A stretch of DNA of 24,034 nucleotides from a virus: UHGV virus genome UHGV-0029496; one strand, 5' to 3'. This document shows positions 5,310 through 12,602 of the stretch, piece by piece. The notes below the pieces were generated by a model, which saw only the letters and a list, made by a program, of their open reading frames with translations, was not told the origin of the DNA and ran no database searches. A program made the translations under genes and the position numbers. Within the stretch, counting starts at the first letter, position 1. Every line of letters starts with the position of its first letter.

Positions 5310-7619
5310 TTAATACCCCGGCTGGTTTCGTGTAGCCCGGCGGGACTTGGAGATTGCACTGTTGCTGTCTTGTAACGCCGCCGATACTGTTTCACTGATG
5401 ATAACACGTAACCGCCCTTCGTCGTCACGCTCTGTAACGGCGGAATCAACTCGTCCGGTGGTGTTGTTGACGATTGTCACGCTGTCACCGCCTGACTTGT
5501 TGCCGTTCTCGCCCATAATCTGGCGCATTTGTTCGGCGGTACGGACGCGTGATGCCCCCGCTGGCATAATAACTTCAGGCTTGTTACGTTCGGCGATGGT
5601 GGATAGTTGCCCGGCGGCTAAGTTACCGCCCTGCTCACGAGCCGAACGAATCTTACCAATGTTCGCCAGACCTGCTGCTACCGCTGCCGCGGCAGCTACG
5701 GGGCCGAGTACCCATCCGACAATAGGAATCGCGGACGCAGATTTATAAGCCTCGATGGCGGAGGTGTATGTGGCTATTGTAGCCTGAGCAATAGCAAACG
5801 CTTTATACGCGCTAGACGCTTCACCAAGTGACGACTTAATATTGTCCGCCATCATGCCGAAAGCGTTACCCGTAGCGTTGGCGCGCTTCAAAGCATACTG
5901 GCCGTTTATCGCGTTAACCGCGGCCTGATACTGTTCCTCGTTTATAAGATTTTGTTCCCGGTACCGGTCTGCAACGTCCAGTTTTTGCTGTTCCTGAATC
6001 TCGAGAAGCTCAAGCTCAGCGGCATTCTGGCCCATAATCTGGGCCATGAAGTCTTCACCTTTCTGGTTCTTTTCCTGCCGTTCTTTCTCTCGCTTGGCGA
6101 GTTCTTCCTGGCGTGCGGTGTCCGCCTCCAGCATAATCTGAGTTTTGGCGTTTTCGTACTGCTGCTGGCTTATTGTTCCTGCTCGGTTGAACTCTTCGAG
6201 TTTCGCCAGTTTCTGTTCTTCCGCCGCGGTGATACGAGAAATTTCGTCTCCGGTTGTACGGTCAACCGTAGCTAGGAAATCTTCTGCGGCTTTCTTCTGG
6301 CGTTGTGCTGCCATTTCTTCACGTTTGGTCTGTGCCGCCAGACGTTCCTCGTTCGATTTAGCCTCTCGGTCGGCCTTCTCTTTCTCGGCCTTGTCAATGC
6401 GGGCGATGTCTTGCTGCGCTTCCGCGTCACGAGCGGCATTATACGCTGCAATCTGTTCTTTGGTGACGGCTTCACGTTTAGCGAACGCCTGTTTATCGAG
6501 TTCAGCTTGCGCCCGGATGCGCTCACGGTCACTTAGGATGGCGATTTGCTGGTTCTTAACAATGGCTTCGTTCTGTTCCTGGAATCTCTGCGTGGTTGAG
6601 TTGACGTTACGACCAAGATTCTTTTGAGCCTCCGCTGCCGCGTTTGCTGACTTCTCCGCGTTCTCCAGTGCCGTGGCGTTCTTGTTGGCATTGTCAGTAA
6701 GGCGTATAAGTTCCGGGTTCAACTGTTCCGTGTTACCTAGCCAGTCGGTGAACACATCGGCGATGCGACGGGCGTTCTCCGCGGTCGGCTCTTTGTTAAA
6801 CGCACTCTGCGCCGCTATCATCTCCAGCGCCTGGTCGCGGTTAACCCCGAACTTACTGCTAAGCTCCGCAATGTTCTGCGCCAGCATGTTGACGCCTACG
6901 ATATTACCCTCGTAAGTGCCGCCGAGTTTTTCTAACGTGTCGCCTACATCAACGCCCTTAGATACCAATGCATCATACTGGCTAATCGCCGATGCCGTGG
7001 ATGCTTTCCACGTTTCCCACGATTCTGCGTCCTCGCGAATGGCTTTAGCTGTTTGCTGCGCGATAAGGTCCGCGTTGGCCTTAGCTAGAGCAAGCTGAGT
7101 CTCCGCCGCTTCTCTGCTGATTTGGGTAAGCTGGATAAGGCCGTCTGTCAGTTCAAGAGAACCGGATGCCGTTTGCTGGAAAGTATCTTTTAACTGCTTC
7201 TGCGCAGCTTCGAGGTCTTTTGAACTGCCTTCTGCTTCGGTTAGCGATTTATACAGGACACCGCCAATTGCTGACGCAAGAGCAATTACAGCCCCAAGCA
7301 CCGCACCACCGGGGCCGAAAGCACCAGCAAGTTGGGAACCTTGCTGCCCTATCGCAACGAATGCAGACGTACCGGATTGCAACTGGACTACCATGTCCTG
7401 CACCTGGTAACCAACCTGCTCGGCGGCATTGCGGAACTTGGCAAAACCGTCGAACACGGCTTTAGACGTAGCGGAATTTACTTTATTAACATCCGGCGTT
7501 AGTTTGTTTACAGATGTGTCCGCCCGGTCTGCGGATGCCGCCATAGCGTCAAGCTGTTTAGCAGCTGCATCAGCGCCTTCTGTTTTTACTCTGGCAATTA
7601 GGGAAGCCGTATCAGCCAT
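5310..7619 (-). CDS. Tail tape measure protein
   Basis: Long Ala/Gln/Glu-rich alpha-helical ORF downstream of the G/T chaperone pair, with Gly-rich hydrophobic segments. Track start is TTG at 7634; first ATG is at 7619 (MADTASLIARVK...). Confidence 0.8.
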   Translation of the reverse strand: MADTASLIARVKTEGADAAAKQLDAMAASADRADTSVNKLTPDVNKVNSATSKAVFDGFAKFRNAAEQVGYQVQDMVVQLQSGTSAFVAIGQQGSQLAGAFGPGGAVLGAVIALASAIGGVLYKSLTEAEGSSKDLEAAQKQLKDTFQQTASGSLELTDGLIQLTQISREAAETQLALAKANADLIAQQTAKAIREDAESWETWKASTASAISQYDALVSKGVDVGDTLEKLGGTYEGNIVGVNMLAQNIAELSSKFGVNRDQALEMIAAQSAFNKEPTAENARRIADVFTDWLGNTEQLNPELIRLTDNANKNATALENAEKSANAAAEAQKNLGRNVNSTTQRFQEQNEAIVKNQQIAILSDRERIRAQAELDKQAFAKREAVTKEQIAAYNAARDAEAQQDIARIDKAEKEKADREAKSNEERLAAQTKREEMAAQRQKKAAEDFLATVDRTTGDEISRITAAEEQKLAKLEEFNRAGTISQQQYENAKTQIMLEADTARQEELAKREKERQEKNQKGEDFMAQIMGQNAAELELLEIQEQQKLDVADRYREQNLINEEQYQAAVNAINGQYALKRANATGNAFGMMADNIKSSLGEASSAYKAFAIAQATIATYTSAIEAYKSASAIPIVGWVLGPVAAAAAVAAGLANIGKIRSAREQGGNLAAGQLSTIAERNKPEVIMPAGASRVRTAEQMRQIMGENGNKSGGDSVTIVNNTTGRVDSAVTERDDEGRLRVIISETVSAALQDSNSAISKSRRATRNQPGY

Positions 7620-7983
7620 CTTCTCTGCCCTCAAATATTCCGTCTAAGCCCATGATAACCTCGGCTTCGAACAAACTTATGCCGTAACCGGCGACATCAC
7701 GAAACGCTACCAAATCTTGCCATTTGAGCGCATCGCGCGGGATTATAACGATAGTATCATCTGTTTCGCGCTGTAGGAATTTAATGGCACGGTATTTCTC
7801 GAACACGTCGATAAGAGAAACGGGGCATTCTGGCCCCGTCGCTTCTTTCATCTGCGGTTCTTTAATCACGCCCATTGCAATCAAAGCCGCCTGGTGCCCT
7901 GCCGCGATGTCGTCGAATTGCTTACGTTTGTGGCGGTCGACAAAGCACCATTGCGCAAACTCATACAGCGCTTTTACTTTTCC
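7612..7983 (-). CDS. Tail assembly chaperone -1 frameshift extension (gpT-like), expressed as a G-T fusion
   Basis: The -1 frame relative to the G ORF is open from 7998 to the stop at 7612-7614 and overlaps the last G codons; slip candidate G-GAA-AAG at 7977-7983 (minus strand) just before the G stop. Confidence 0.45.
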   Translation of the reverse strand, partial: GKVKALYEFAQWCFVDRHKRKQFDDIAAGHQAALIAMGVIKEPQMKEATGPECPVSLIDVFEKYRAIKFLQRETDDTIVIIPRDALKWQDLVAFRDVAGYGISLFEAEVIMGLDGIFEGREDG

Positions 7984-8390
7984 GAGAGTTTCTCGCGGCT
8001 ATCAGTATGGTGCTTAACTACGGCTTCTGCCAGTCCGCTGTACTGGTCAAACAGGTTAGCCAGCGCCTCTTTGCTGAACGGTTCGTCGAATGACCAACCG
8101 GTGACGATTTCCACGGCAAGCTGCTTGTTCAGGTCCATCACCCGCCAGCCCTTCTCATCGTTATAGCGCGCCCAGTTATTCAGTGCCTCGCACTCTTTAT
8201 CTAATGGCGCAAGTTCTTCCGTAAGGCGGCGAATTGCCGTTGTGTAGGCGCGGCCCGCACGAACACCCGCGTCACAATCGGGGCCAATGACCTGCAACCA
8301 TTCGCCGGAGTCCTTACCACTCGGCAGAAGGATAGGCATTTTAGTGCCGGCGGCGTGGCGGTCGGCAAAATAGAAATCAGAAAGTTTCAT
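7974..8390 (-). CDS. Tail assembly chaperone (gpG-like)
   Basis: 138 aa acidic protein immediately upstream of the tape measure gene; AAGGA SD before ATG 8390; followed by an overlapping -1 frame ORF. Confidence 0.55.
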   Translation of the reverse strand: MKLSDFYFADRHAAGTKMPILLPSGKDSGEWLQVIGPDCDAGVRAGRAYTTAIRRLTEELAPLDKECEALNNWARYNDEKGWRVMDLNKQLAVEIVTGWSFDEPFSKEALANLFDQYSGLAEAVVKHHTDSREKLSEK

Positions 8391-8482
8391 TCTTTAATCC
8401 TTTGGTTAAGAGGTTACGGGTTAAGGTTGACGCGCCAGACGGGAACCACCCGCTTTTCGTGTGCGACACTAGGCGCAAACTT

Positions 8483-8516
8483 ATTCTAGCACACTACTTG
8501 CACACCCCAATATAAT
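8483..8516. promoter_or_regulatory. Divergent promoter candidates in the 164-bp gap between the chaperone gene (minus) and the plus-strand cassette
   Basis: Plus strand: perfect TATAAT at 8511-8516, about 40 nt before ATG 8555, weak -35. Minus strand: TAGAAT (plus 8483-8488) with TTGGGG 16 nt upstream. Confidence 0.25.
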
Positions 8517-8554: not shown

Positions 8555-8881
8555 ATGCGTAAATTAGTATTAGCTCTGGGGTTTATGTCTTTTGCGGCTT
8601 TTGGGTCCTCGTGCGAACAGGCATTTAGTGAATCTGTTCTTATGACTTCTGGTGTGCTTGAGAAAGCCGACCCTACTATTGTAAAGGCATTTAGGGACTC
8701 TACCGTTCGCGAGTGTGAGGCCGCCGTGGAGGTTGGTAAATCGGGCCTACCCCCGCAAGCCGTAACATACACGGTAATACGTTCGGTAGAGAAAAACGGA
8801 GATGCGTTTTACAGCCTACTGACAGCCACCCGTCTGCAAATGGTAATGACGGGTTGGGCAGTAGGCGCAGAAAGTAAATAG
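8555..8881 (+). CDS. Small secreted protein or possible lipoprotein
   Basis: GAGGAA SD 6 nt before ATG; N-terminus MRKLVLALGFMSFAAFGSSC is a classic signal peptide with Cys at 20 (non-canonical lipobox); three Cys in total. Confidence 0.6.
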   Translation: MRKLVLALGFMSFAAFGSSCEQAFSESVLMTSGVLEKADPTIVKAFRDSTVRECEAAVEVGKSGLPPQAVTYTVIRSVEKNGDAFYSLLTATRLQMVMTGWAVGAESK

Positions 8882-8945
8882 TTGCCTTTATTTAAAGAAC
8901 GCACTGTGGCTAAATAGGACAAATCCTAAACACGAGGAAGTAAGT

Positions 8946-10076
8946 ATGGCCCAGAAGAAAATAACCGACGAACAGTTACAGGAAGAATTGAACGCCGGGA
9001 TGAAGAATATCGACATCGCACGTAAATATGGCATCTCAGACCGCGTTATTCGTATCCGTAAAGCGAAGCTGGCTAAGAAAGGTGTAGGCCACGGGCGTGA
9101 CGTTAGTCACCTTGTGCCGGACGGTTACAAGATTAAAGGAACGTCGTCACTGGTGGACGAGTTCGGCAACACTAAGTTGCAATGGGTTAAGACCGACACC
9201 GATGCCGAACGTCAGGTCGAATTGATGAAAGCCGTAATCGAAGGAATGAAGTCAGAGATTACGCCAGTTGCGCCTGTTAAAGCCATTCGCGCTAAACGCG
9301 ATGACAAGCTACTTAATCTTTACACGGTATCTGATTTTCATCTCGGTATGCTGGCATGGGCGGATGAGAGCGGCGACGACTGGGATATGAAGATTGCGGA
9401 AGACCTGTTCTCCCGATGGTTCGACGCGGCATTCCAGAAAGCACCGGATGCAGGAACAGGAGTTATTAATCTGTTAGGTGACTTCGCACACTTTGATAGT
9501 CTTGATGCCGTTACGCCCGAGTCGTGCCATGTGCTAGACGCGGATACGCGCTACCAGAAACTTGTCCGCTACATGATTCGCATGGTCCGCCGTGTTGTTG
9601 ATATGGCGCTGGTTAAGCATAACACCGTAAAACTTTTAATCATTCAAGGTAACCACGACCCTGTCGGCTCCGTATGGCTGTCCGAAATGTTCTGCACATT
9701 GTATGACAACGAACCTCGCGTATTTGTGGACACCTCCCCCGACGTATACAAGATGGTTCAGCACGGGAAAACTACACTATTCATGCACCACGGACACCGT
9801 GCGAGATTCGACGCCATAGAGTCGGTAATGATTTCTAAATTCCGTAAGGCTTTCGGAGAAAGCACATACAGCTACGCCCACGTAGGCCACCTGCACCATC
9901 AGAAGATTGTAGAAAGCCGTAACATGATTGTTGAGCAACACCGCACCTTAGCGGCTAAAGACGCCTACGCCTCTCGCGGCGGATGGATGTCAGGCCGTAG
10001 CGCGAATGTAATTACTTATAGCGCCGAATATGGTGAGGTCGCTCGTTTAACTATTTCACCGGAGATGCTGGGATGA
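8946..10076 (+). CDS. HTH domain fused to a calcineurin-like metallophosphoesterase (Mre11/SbcD-like motifs)
   Basis: GAGGAAG SD; N-terminal HTH-like segment IDIARKYGISDRVIRIRKAKL; motifs DFHLG (DxH), GDFAHFD (GDxxD), GNHD, HHGH, GHLHH in the canonical order. Confidence 0.7.
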   Translation: MAQKKITDEQLQEELNAGMKNIDIARKYGISDRVIRIRKAKLAKKGVGHGRDVSHLVPDGYKIKGTSSLVDEFGNTKLQWVKTDTDAERQVELMKAVIEGMKSEITPVAPVKAIRAKRDDKLLNLYTVSDFHLGMLAWADESGDDWDMKIAEDLFSRWFDAAFQKAPDAGTGVINLLGDFAHFDSLDAVTPESCHVLDADTRYQKLVRYMIRMVRRVVDMALVKHNTVKLLIIQGNHDPVGSVWLSEMFCTLYDNEPRVFVDTSPDVYKMVQHGKTTLFMHHGHRARFDAIESVMISKFRKAFGESTYSYAHVGHLHHQKIVESRNMIVEQHRTLAAKDAYASRGGWMSGRSANVITYSAEYGEVARLTISPEMLG

Positions 10077-10303
10077 CTTCAAAATACAACCGCACAATGA
10101 CAAACACCCACGGCAGCACTATGACTGTAGACGTTTACGATGTTCTCCGTGCTTTCGACATCCGCGACCCAGCGCTACAGCACGCATTAAAGAAACTGCT
10201 GTGCATGGGCTTGCGTGGTCACAAGGACACCGGGACCGACTTAGCGGAAGCGATTGAAAGTCTGGAGAAGTTACAGGAATACCGGAGTAATATTGATGAG
10301 TAA
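10073..10303 (+). CDS. Small hypothetical protein, translationally coupled to the phosphoesterase gene
   Basis: ATG overlaps the upstream TGA (ATGA at 10073-10076); 76 aa, helical and charged (DPALQHALKKLL...DLAEAIESLEKLQE). Confidence 0.55.
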   Translation: MTSKYNRTMTNTHGSTMTVDVYDVLRAFDIRDPALQHALKKLLCMGLRGHKDTGTDLAEAIESLEKLQEYRSNIDE

Positions 10304-10451
10304 GAAAAAGCGAACCCCAAACAACAACAACAACAACGTCCCGTATACCCCGCTGCCGTTTCCAGAGCCTAACAAGCCCTCGCCGCTTATGTCGGACAAC
10401 GAATGGCGGCGGGTCGCCAGAATGACCATCCGCCTGAGAAGACTGGCTTGA
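10296..10451 (+). CDS. Small Asn/Pro-rich basic protein
   Basis: ATG 10296 with GGAG 9 nt upstream, overlapping the end of the previous ORF by 8 nt; 51 aa MSKKKRTPNNNNNNVPYTPLPFPEP...; contains the (AAC)6 tract. Confidence 0.4.
   Translation: MSKKKRTPNNNNNNVPYTPLPFPEPNKPSPLMSDNEWRRVARMTIRLRRLA
10320..10337 (+). repeat. Perfect trinucleotide microsatellite (AAC)6, in frame (Asn6)
   Basis: aacaacaacaacaacaac read directly. Confidence 0.9.
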
Positions 10452-10463
10452 CCGATAAATAGT

Positions 10464-10483
10464 AAGGCCCTGAAAGGGGCCTT
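10464..10483 (+). terminator. GC-rich hairpin after the three-gene operon (weak terminator or attenuator)
   Basis: aaggccc-tgaaag-gggcctt, 7-bp stem, no clear U-tract. Confidence 0.3.
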
Positions 10484-10496
10484 ATCGCAACAGGAG

Positions 10497-10991
10497 ATGA
10501 TTATGGACTGGAATGAATTTTTCATATACGACTTAATTTCAGGAAGGATATTTAACAGAGTAACACGTTCCGGGAGGGCTAAGGCTGGAGAGGAGGCAGG
10601 TACGGTACAGCGAGACGGATATAGAAGGATATTTTTCAGGGGTAAATGGCACGCGGCGCACCGTATAGCTTGGGACTTAAACAATACTAACAATAAGCTA
10701 ACCTCGTCAGATCAAATAGACCATCTAGACCATAACCGAATAAACAATAGGCCGCTTAACTTAGCTAAAAAGTCCAATGCGGAAAACCATAAAAATATGT
10801 CAAAACAGCGTAATAATAAATCAGGAGTAACCGGGGTTTACTGGAACGCGAAAGAAAGGTTGTGGTACGCACAGATATTCAACAATAACGTAAAAACACA
10901 CATCGGGTGCTTTAAAACGCTACTAGATGCAGTTGCCGCAAGGAGAGTTGCTGAAAGAGATTTAGGGTTCCACGAGAACCACGGTAAATAG
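10497..10991 (+). CDS. HNH homing endonuclease with C-terminal AP2-like DNA-binding domain
   Basis: HNH core AHRIAWDL...IDHLDHNRINNRPLNL; C-terminal GVTGVYWNAKERLWYAQI...IGCFKTLLDAVAARR is AP2-like; Asn-rich and AT-rich codon usage unlike neighbours. AGGAG abuts ATG 10497, so ATG 10503 may be the true start. Confidence 0.75.
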   Translation: MIMDWNEFFIYDLISGRIFNRVTRSGRAKAGEEAGTVQRDGYRRIFFRGKWHAAHRIAWDLNNTNNKLTSSDQIDHLDHNRINNRPLNLAKKSNAENHKNMSKQRNNKSGVTGVYWNAKERLWYAQIFNNNVKTHIGCFKTLLDAVAARRVAERDLGFHENHGK

Positions 10992-11016: not shown

Positions 11017-12183
11017 TTACGCGTAGCTAATACGCTGTATTACAATAGAAGATTGATATTGATTGCCTGTGGACTGTCCTTCTATGCTCTGAGTTATTGA
11101 TTCTGGCCCCCCAATCTCTGGTGTAACCGCCGTAAGTTCTGCGCGTTTCAGGCTGAAAGACATAGCCCCGTTTACCCCGGCCAGAATAGAGTTAATCTCC
11201 ACCTGCTGTTCGTTGATAAACTTCTGAATCATCACCATGTCGTACAGCTTGCCGGAGATAGAGAAGGTGTTAGCCGCGCGACCACGTTCCACGAACGCAA
11301 CGCTACTGTTGCCGAGTTCGAACTGTGCGGAAGCACCGTTGTCGTTGGTGATGGTCAGAGTATCGCAACGCAACGGCGTAGAGCCGTCGAACACAGACAC
11401 ATCTACAGATGAGAACGGCTCATCGGTAAACGTCACCTGAGAGAAATCAGAGCCTGCTGGCGGTGCGGTAAGAATCTCCTGACTCAGGCCGATGAACGGG
11501 AAGCTGCCAGTTACCATAGCGTTAACCGCCTGCTCTACGGTGAAGCCGGAGATTTCCACGCCTTTGGTGAGCATATACGCGTCCGGGTTGCCGCACTGGC
11601 CCTTGAACCACGTCAGGATGGAGAACGTCTTACATGCGTTACCGGTTTCCAGCTTGTCACCCGTTTTTGCGTCAGTGGTTACTGTCTCAGCCGTTAGCGT
11701 GTGCTGAATGCCAGCACCCGTAACTACCAGAGCGGAAACCGCAGTTACGATGAACGGTTTGGCGTTGTCGCCGGTTAAGCCGGTGAACGCAATCAGGTCG
11801 CCAACTTCTACGCCGTCAGTGACGAAGCTACCCGCCGCGCGAGTGAACGTCTTGCCAGTTGGCTCTACAGTGATGGACGCGCCCGTAATTTCTGCCCCAG
11901 CCTGCCATGTAGAAGTCATCGCGCCTGCAAGGAAATCATCCTGGCTACGGGAGCTAAGTTCAATAGCATACTCCCCGCTAACCTGCTTGTTACCGGTTCG
12001 GATGGATGTAGTTTCACGGCTGCCGTCGAGTTCGTTGGAAGTAAGCGCATCGCGGGTTACGGCAGGAACGCCGCCAGTGTTACGCAACGGTGACCATACC
12101 GGGTTAGTCGGTGTTACGCCCGGGGTAGTTTCCGCCACATAGAATTGCGCGGTATTCGCGCCCTTAAAAGGAGTTGTAGCCAT
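11017..12183 (-). CDS. Major tail (tube) protein
   Basis: 388 aa Thr/Gly/Ser-rich beta-type protein after the neck genes; AAGAGG SD before ATG 12183 (track start is GTG 12189); TGAATATG junction with the upstream gene. Confidence 0.6.
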   Translation of the reverse strand: MATTPFKGANTAQFYVAETTPGVTPTNPVWSPLRNTGGVPAVTRDALTSNELDGSRETTSIRTGNKQVSGEYAIELSSRSQDDFLAGAMTSTWQAGAEITGASITVEPTGKTFTRAAGSFVTDGVEVGDLIAFTGLTGDNAKPFIVTAVSALVVTGAGIQHTLTAETVTTDAKTGDKLETGNACKTFSILTWFKGQCGNPDAYMLTKGVEISGFTVEQAVNAMVTGSFPFIGLSQEILTAPPAGSDFSQVTFTDEPFSSVDVSVFDGSTPLRCDTLTITNDNGASAQFELGNSSVAFVERGRAANTFSISGKLYDMVMIQKFINEQQVEINSILAGVNGAMSFSLKRAELTAVTPEIGGPESITQSIEGQSTGNQYQSSIVIQRISYA

Positions 12184-12185
12184 AT

Positions 12186-12602
12186 TCACAGCCTCTTGGT
12201 GAATGCAATAAAGTTAATAGACAATGGTCGTTTGGCCCATCCGTTCTCTACAATCAGCGGCCCCAGGCTAACCGATTGAACCTCGGCGCAGATGTCGTTA
12301 CGTGAAAATGACTTACCTGCTTTAAACGCCGTGTTAAGTAAGTCTGCCATTTTATTGATTGGCGCGCTACCTTTCACCGATGCGTAGTTAATGTCAACCT
12401 GATAAATACCTGAGCGTTGTTCCGTGAAGAACAAATCAGCCTGCTCGGTATCCGCAAGTAACATGTAACTTGCCAGATACGGAGTATCGGTTGACGTCGG
12501 CGCGTCGATGTTTTCAAGCGCGACCTTGATGCCGTTGGTGGTTCCGAAGGCTACCAGTGGCACATCGAACGCTTTTGTTAAGTCCTCAAAGTAGCCCATC
12601 AT
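12186..12602 (-). CDS. Neck protein, tail-terminator-like by position
   Basis: 138 aa; start overlaps upstream stop (ATGATGA); immediately upstream of the major tail gene. Confidence 0.4.
   Translation of the reverse strand: MMGYFEDLTKAFDVPLVAFGTTNGIKVALENIDAPTSTDTPYLASYMLLADTEQADLFFTEQRSGIYQVDINYASVKGSAPINKMADLLNTAFKAGKSFSRNDICAEVQSVSLGPLIVENGWAKRPLSINFIAFTKRL

Follow-up and report, generated by a model that had tools for sequence, protein, structure and literature searches.

A predicted stop-adjacent A_AAG frameshift signal joining the tail assembly chaperone genes G and T of a Kagunavirus and its Guernseyvirinae relatives

In phage lambda, the tail assembly chaperone G binds the tape measure protein in many copies, the rare frameshift product G-T bridges to the tube protein via its T domain, and neither is present in virions (PMC5009743). 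Here we analysed the corresponding locus on the minus strand of UHGV virus genome UHGV-0029496, presented as one stretch of 24,034 nucleotides (nt) that is called the window throughout. No class of phage recoding is better known than frameshifting of the G/GT type, and existing annotation already records it for this locus, the identical fusion having been deposited with the genome of Escherichia phage K1H. The locus resembles lambda G/G-T in having two overlapping open reading frames (ORFs) right in front of the tape-measure gene, of which the second is in the -1 frame and lacks a start of its own, and in placing the slip on ...A_AAG near the end of G, where a strong RNA structure is not required. 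The predicted products are likewise a short chaperone and a rare fusion, and one relative carries lambda's exact heptamer, G_GGA_AAG. Unlike lambda, the heptamer here is G_GAA_AAG, for which re-pairing in the P site would involve a second-position G.U pair, and sister lineages lack any such re-pairing; the stop codon follows the slip site directly; G and T fall into different Pfam families from their lambda counterparts (Phage_TAC_4 and Phage_TAC_18); a 2.6-kb opposite-strand module parts the tail-tube gene from G; and the frameshift is a predicted one.

Comparable slip sites have been described outside phage tail genes. At the NNA_AAG and A_AAG sites of Bacillus subtilis cdd (A_CGA_AAG), IS1222 (G_CGA_AAG) and IS3 (A_AAG), lysyl-tRNA alone slips from AAG to AAA (PMC5009743, PMC4066793, PMC6815119). 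Of all tetramers in E. coli, A_AAG has by far the greatest tendency to shift to -1 (PMC4066793; also PMC6815119), and C_AAG abolishes the frameshifting effect (PMC6815119). The efficiency of the NNA_AAG sites used by IS1222 and B. subtilis cdd depends on the tRNA of the 5' codon (PMC5009743); at sites of this type the 5' NNA codon modulates and does not define the signal. All penultimate G codons found in the present analysis are also NNA (GAA, GUA, GCA, GGA, UCA). The cdd, IS1222 and IS3 sites need a pseudoknot or stem-loop downstream or a Shine-Dalgarno (SD) sequence upstream; none of these could be detected here, where the site is followed directly by a stop codon. Adjacency to a stop has a counterpart in Burkholderia phage KL1, in which the predicted tail-chaperone site of gp18/gp19, GGGAAAC, lies directly before a TGA stop (PMC3483164). 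The tail proteins of KL1 were reported to be similar to those of the K1H group (PMC3483164). Unlike the site analysed here, that of KL1 is a canonical X_XXY_YYZ heptamer followed by UGA; it too is a prediction.

We conclude that a programmed -1 frameshift very probably joins G to T, giving a fusion of 259 amino acids (aa), and that the predicted T segment (7977..7612) is in all likelihood made only as the C-terminal half of this fusion. The features on which the argument turns are as follows (a hyphen marks the junction).

8390..7974, minus strand: gene G, tail assembly chaperone of 138 aa, the 0-frame product, from the ORF and its translation; stop TAA at 7976..7974.
7977..7983, minus strand: predicted slip site G_GAA_AAG, of which A_AAG (7980..7977) is the obligate part.
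7974..7976, minus strand: 0-frame stop UAA, adjoining the slip site on its 3' side and a candidate for a 'shifty stop' pause.
7977..7998, minus strand: overlap window of 22 nt, in which the -1 frame is already open before the G stop and the shift must occur.
7977..7612, minus strand: T segment, 121 codons in the -1 frame, from GTA (7977..7975) to TGA (7614..7612).
8390..7977 plus 7977..7612, minus strand: predicted G-T fusion coding region, 259 aa, junction ...REKLSEK-VKALYE...
5310..7619, minus strand: tape measure protein gene, matching phrog_1538 'tail length tape measure protein' (E=8e-188) and so annotated in relatives.
7966..7971, minus strand: 3' tract GCG CTG (Ala-Leu in the T frame), 5 nt past the slip site and invariant in the main set of relatives.

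In the mechanism that we propose, a minority of the ribosomes translating G would slip back by 1 nt on G_GAA_AAG (7983..7977), just before the UAA. The lysyl-tRNA(UUU) would re-pair from AAG to AAA, and tRNA-Glu could re-pair near-cognately from GAA to GGA via a central G.U pair. GUA would then replace UAA as the next codon, and 121 further codons in the -1 frame would yield the 259-aa G-T (...LSEK-VKALYE...), while most ribosomes would terminate to give the 138-aa G; a fixed slip frequency would therefore set the G:GT ratio. By analogy with lambda, G would coat the tape measure protein and the rare G-T would recruit the tail-tube protein through its T domain. We infer this division of labour between G and T, as well as the occurrence of slippage and its rate.

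The reading frames at the locus define the shift narrowly. G ends with the codons GAG AAA CTC (7988-7986) TCG (7985-7983) GAA (7982-7980) AAG (7979-7977) TAA (7976-7974), and the first two bases of the UAA (7976..7974) form part of the -1 codon GUA. Upstream, the -1 frame is closed by TGA (8004-8002) and TAG (8001-7999), after which it is open from CCG at 7998 to TGA 7614..7612, corresponding to 128 aa. G, T and the tape-measure gene are consecutive, with T in the -1 frame, and the T stop falls 8 nt inside the tape-measure gene (ATG 7619), where the overlap reads ATGGCTGA. The first in-frame ATG of the T segment in the window, at 7875, is codon 34 after the slip. A -1 frame that stays open for 121 codons is unusual: in 10 long genes of the window such frames stop once per ~13 codons (0.076 stops per codon) and never stay open for more than 70; from this stop rate, the probability of at least 121 open -1 codons is ~7e-5. 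The string AAAGTAR by itself is unremarkable: it occurs 8 times in the window, where 6.1 occurrences are expected.

The window belongs to a Kagunavirus (Guernseyvirinae) and shares ~95% nucleotide identity with K1H-like coliphages, and a 1.1-kb region is 94–96% identical to many Escherichia Kagunavirus siphophages (e.g. 590B, K1H, XY2). Both halves of the predicted fusion have recognisable family matches: G to Pfam PF08748 Phage_TAC_4 (35.9 bits; curated cut-off 21.1) and the T segment to PF23812 Phage_TAC_18 (64.5 bits; curated cut-off 27). A single PHROG of 259 positions, phrog_15027 'tail assembly chaperone', covers the two, with G on positions 1-138 (E=1e-65) and T on 137-259; G and T map on it end to end, and it was evidently built from fused proteins. 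The predicted 259-aa fusion is identical in sequence to ADA82316.1 / YP_009168853.1, 'tail assembly chaperone [Escherichia phage K1H]', and the fusion protein is identical in K1H, Bas76 and XY2. The K1H entries ORF19A and ORF19B (GU196278 / NC_027994) have G and G-T amino-acid sequences identical to those of the window, and in NC_027994 G-T is annotated as a two-piece joined coding sequence (CDS). Joined CDSs labelled 'frameshift product' also occur in fFiEco02 (Kagunavirus) and Shemara (Cornellvirus). The joined CDSs of K1H, fFiEco02 and Shemara share the junction and the gene order found here, and their annotations are predictions too; the window, as a further isolate, shows no substantive difference from them. 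No sequence relative of G-T was found in PDB.

Relatives for comparison were gathered by similarity of the G protein alone. More than 500 genomes carry a G homologue, and the main set comprised 43 distinct G-T nucleotide sequences with G identities from 100% down to 44%. In all 43, G ends with N-NNA-AAG-TAR and is followed by 120–122 open -1 codons that reach the tape-measure start; the NNA-AAG-TAR ending and the ~121 codons in the -1 frame also hold in every member of a larger set, which comprised 66 distinct sequences. The same G ending and -1-frame arrangement is found in genomes of Jerseyvirus, Cornellvirus and other Kagunavirus lineages. Variation within the -1 frame was that of a coding sequence from the first codon onward. 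Between the G stop and ATG 7875 (T codons 1-33), entropies at codon positions 1, 2 and 3 were 0.60, 0.56 and 1.27, compared with 0.62, 0.63 and 1.31 for G, and the rest of T showed the same coding signature. The residues just past the junction, K-V-x-A-L-Y-x-(F/Y)-A-x-W, are conserved. No conserved start codon and no conserved SD sequence was found for T, and the first ATG, GTG or TTG in the T frame may come as late as codon 47 (L016), 57 (L029) or 94 (L028). From the entropies, the conserved junction residues and the non-conserved ATG together, we conclude that T is read by ribosomes from its first codon onward and has no start codon specific to it. The initial annotation had placed the end of G at 7974, the open -1 frame at 7998-7612 and the string CTC-TCG-GAA-AAG-TAA in the overlap, and every coordinate and base of it holds; that the two ORFs form a G/G-T tail chaperone arrangement, as it had proposed, is borne out by the Pfam and PHROG matches, the K1H fusion record and the conservation in every relative examined.

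The same observations bear on the possibility that T is translated independently and that no frameshift takes place, either by termination-reinitiation at the conserved YUG (CUG 7968..7966, 9 nt past the G stop) or from AUG 7875. A start-codon role could account for the YUG, as T codon 4 is always CTG or TTG and the preceding GCG is invariant, and gene callers do produce T versions of 87 aa and 119 aa. CUG is, however, a very poor initiator in E. coli, and no SD sequence is conserved upstream. Initiation at ATG 7875, which the initial annotation had named as the scenario that would speak against a fusion, is contradicted by the coding constraint and periodicity of codons 1-33 and by the lack of this ATG in several relatives. 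Independent translation of T would also give no reason for the constant A at the end of the penultimate G codon, for the constant AAG as last codon or for the G that always precedes GAA. In lambda, moreover, T is held to the tape measure by the G part (PMC5009743), which a free T would not have. We therefore consider independent translation of T very unlikely.

What is conserved at the nucleotide level lies at the junction. Among 48 fully conserved amino-acid columns with degenerate codons in the 43 sequences of the 260-codon gene, a single codon is used in only four, namely AAG, GTA, GCG and CTG. These are junction positions 0, +1, +3 and +4, and all other conserved columns vary synonymously. 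In the wider set, the last G codon is AAG in 66/66, though these genes more often encode Lys by AAA (60%). The penultimate codon is GAA in 50 sequences, GCA in 10, GTA in four, and GGA and TCA in one each, with A always as the third base. The G stop adjoins AAG in all 66 (TAG 43, TAA 23, TGA 0), and the base after the stop is A in 53, C in 11, T in two and G in none. A G precedes GAA in 50 of 50 sequences across seven different antepenultimate codons (TCG, TTG, CAG, GCG, CTG, ATG, AAG), while A, G or C is found before GCA. The shift window is only 16 nt in some relatives, and no other slippery motif was found within the 16–22 nt windows of the relatives examined. These results demonstrate that selection acts at the nucleotide level on the slip site and on its adjacency to the stop. 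The universal core in the relatives examined is A_AAG with an adjacent UAA or UAG, and G_GAA_AAG, the commonest version, looks to have been selected as a heptamer. As the initial annotation had pointed out, G_GAA_AAG is not a canonical X_XXY_YYZ site; the comparison refines this, only the 3' tetramer A_AAG being canonical, with the adjacent UAA/UAG as its constant companion. Sister lineages have G_GTA, N_GCA or G_TCA before AAG. The GCA, GTA and TCA lineages, which keep the arrangement, show re-pairing of the 5' tRNA to be dispensable.

Two further candidates were set aside. The sequence GCGCUGUA as a universal 3' element was rejected: it is invariant in the 43 sequences, but GCG CTG (7966-7971) reads GCG TTG (GCGUUG in the RNA) in the Jerseyvirus/Sciku lineage. 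A slip one codon earlier would produce ...LSGKVK..., which is absent from a 15-billion-sequence collection, whereas ...LSEKVK... is present.

The conservation around GAA raises the possibility that the shift occurs by classical tandem slippage during translocation on G_GAA_AAG, with the adjacent stop being incidental and the protein product the same. The G before GAA in 50/50 sequences despite a varying antepenultimate codon speaks for selection that favours re-pairing in the P site (GAA to GGA, with a middle G.U), and the relative with the canonical lambda heptamer G_GGA_AAG fits this route as well. In contrast, the lineages with A_GCA_AAG, C_GCA_AAG, G_TCA_AAG or G_GTA_AAG cannot re-pair the 5' tRNA and yet keep the arrangement. 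The stop adjacency is invariant and confined to UAA and UAG, although UGA would also yield a Val codon in the -1 frame. Neither a structure nor an SD sequence was found for the pause that this pathway normally needs, and in vitro, at every EF-G concentration, AUG_GAA_AAG yielded mostly the 0-frame product (PMC6924986). Tandem slippage with an incidental stop thus seems to us a real but rather doubtful possibility.

A change of frame in the transcript rather than on the ribosome, by RNA polymerase slippage on the short A run at the junction (GGAAAAG), is far harder to reconcile with the data. Productive transcriptional slippage needs ~7-9 identical bases; the run comprises four A residues here and three in the relatives with GTA, GCA or TCA before AAG. 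Selection for AAG over AAA and for an adjacent stop also fits translation, and we regard slippage of the polymerase as extremely improbable.

Several results and reports weigh against a programmed ribosomal frameshift at this site. The relatives share a phylogeny, and the counts given above therefore overstate the independence of the observations. The downstream RNA structure that the initial annotation had considered was not found: RNAalifold detected no conserved helix within -120..+90 nt of the site in alignments of 17 and 61 sequences, and in the window sequence the 104 nt past the site fold no better than shuffled sequences (z=+0.36). No conserved SD-like stimulator was detected either, as in a scan for anti-SD duplexes at most 8% of the sequences reached -4.5 kcal/mol at any upstream position. 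A_AAG without a stimulator supports only ~0.15% frameshifting, barely over background (PMC4066793), and AUG_GAA_AAG served in a reconstituted E. coli system as a poorly shifty control, in which 'only one tRNA can slip', for comparison with G_GGA_AAG (PMC6924986). Public records also present T as a separate ORF in Bas76 (CTG start), in Sciku, XY1, BPS11Q3 and fEg-Eco06 (TTG start) and in XY2 and KE06 (internal ATG start), and these starts are what independent translation of T would call for. The genome announcement of one relative states that there is 'no canonical slippery sequence' (PMC6776780). A literature search gave no experimental evidence of a frameshift for this phage group and no paper linking Kagunavirus with frameshifting.

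Among the features searched for, then, only the stop codon recurs in every relative. Rfam gave no match at the slip site, and the GCG CTG tract lies in no conserved helix. The stop is a candidate for the pause because it is the sole conserved feature able to supply one, occupying the A site while the P site holds AAG. A 'shifty stop' was put forward by Weiss et al. (1987), here taken as that idea is cited in PMC5009743. Whether the adjacent UAA/UAG provides a pause in place of an RNA structure or SD stimulator, both of which are missing, is, in our judgement, evenly poised. More tentatively, the G/GT genes of Guernseyvirinae might represent a structure-less class of -1 signal, in which (N_)NNA_AAG depends on a UAA or UAG in the A site and on a linear 3' tract NN-GCG-YUG, and in which the G:GT ratio is set by termination kinetics (RF1/RF2) and not by RNA structure, possibly with transcript-level control by a leader RNA (8477..8431) and a hairpin in T (7840..7819), both described below. 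The G-T protein product stays the same whichever slippage pathway is used.

The contribution of the present analysis is a subfamily-wide rule, together with evidence for a non-canonical, stop-adjacent NNA_AAG signal without detectable RNA stimulators. Public records of this large subfamily disagree with one another: some join G to T, while many list T separately as a 'hypothetical protein' or place its start at CTG or TTG. The rule that G ends in NNA-AAG-UAR, with the join on the G of AAG, resolves the inconsistency. For recoding biology, the locus offers a natural and widely conserved low-grade A_AAG site whose sole conserved companion is the adjacent stop codon, and it would be a cheap system for 'shifty stop' -1 frameshifting in E. 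coli.

Beyond this set, distant G homologues (L049, L052, L053, L181 and L182; 25–35% identity) keep the layout of G, T in the -1 frame and tape measure, and the stop-adjacent A_AAG is absent from them. Read by eye, ordinary heptamers lie a few codons before the stop in some of those with 30–35% identity, for example T_TTT_TTC in L049 and A_AAT_TTT in L052. In Pseudomonas phages, T is unannotated (Almagne) or listed as a 'hypothetical protein' (phiH1). An IMG/VR scan for AAAGTARNNGCGCTGTA returned at least 120 stretches. Of 80 loci read, 33 were in G/GT context, and the matches outside that context were chance in-frame occurrences of K-V-x-A-L-Y or noncoding. One locus with A_AAA_AAG_TAA (L057) was discarded, not being homologous to G/GT.

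Just 5' of the G start (8390), a structured leader RNA was found at 8477..8431 on the minus strand. It consists of an outer stem, UGCGCC/GGCGCG, around the hairpins GUG-UCGCA-CAC and GCGGG-UGGUU-CCCGU with a GAAAA linker. The leader matches Rfam RF02996 int-alpA at 27.7 bits, below the gathering threshold of 35.8, and this is the sole Rfam match in the window; matches at the same place, also below threshold (24.7–34.7 bits), were obtained in 12 of 14 relatives. RNAalifold applied to 12 diverse leaders recovered the same three helices independently, with compensatory double changes in 8 of 14 pairs. The leader sequence is more conserved than the G protein, and together with an extended -10-like element, TGCTAGAAT (8491..8483, read by eye), it hardly differs between lineages with only ~50% identity in the G protein.

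A terminator-like hairpin lies within T at 7840..7819 on the minus strand, ACGGGGC-CAGAAT-GCCCCGT followed by TTTCTCTT, with a local minimum free energy of -18 kcal/mol. Its inner pairs coincide with conserved G-P-E-C-P codons; the outer 3–5 pairs covary via amino-acid changes on both sides (T..V, E..S, K..F, RG..PP), and TTTTTAT follows the hairpin in many lineages. In 26 distinct segments, 72.6% of cells were paired compared with 63.7% after shuffling (reached by 0 of 500 shuffles), and cells with double changes numbered 32 compared with 16. The evidence from covariation is moderate, because a register slid by +3 scores higher (0.263 vs 0.224). The hairpin is absent in the Jerseyvirus/Sciku lineage. 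As a frameshift stimulator it was rejected, being 137 nt from the slip site and thus too far away. Its function may be to terminate transcription partially or to stabilise a 3' end, which would increase G relative to the tape measure, and either the leader or this hairpin could regulate the operon at the transcript level.

The tail-tube gene (11017..12189; Pfam Phage_tube_2) and the tail-terminator gene lie upstream of G on the same strand. Between the tube gene and G, the tail cluster is broken by a plus-strand module at 8555..10991 (~2.6 kb), which encodes a 108-aa protein with no assigned function (phrog_14165), a DNA repair exonuclease (phrog_704), a 76-aa ORF and an HNH endonuclease (10497..10991). 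The 76-aa ORF (10073..10303) matches the C-terminal third alone of phrog_2452 (positions 150-220 of 235); the ORF, which lies beside the homing endonuclease, may be a truncated or split gene.

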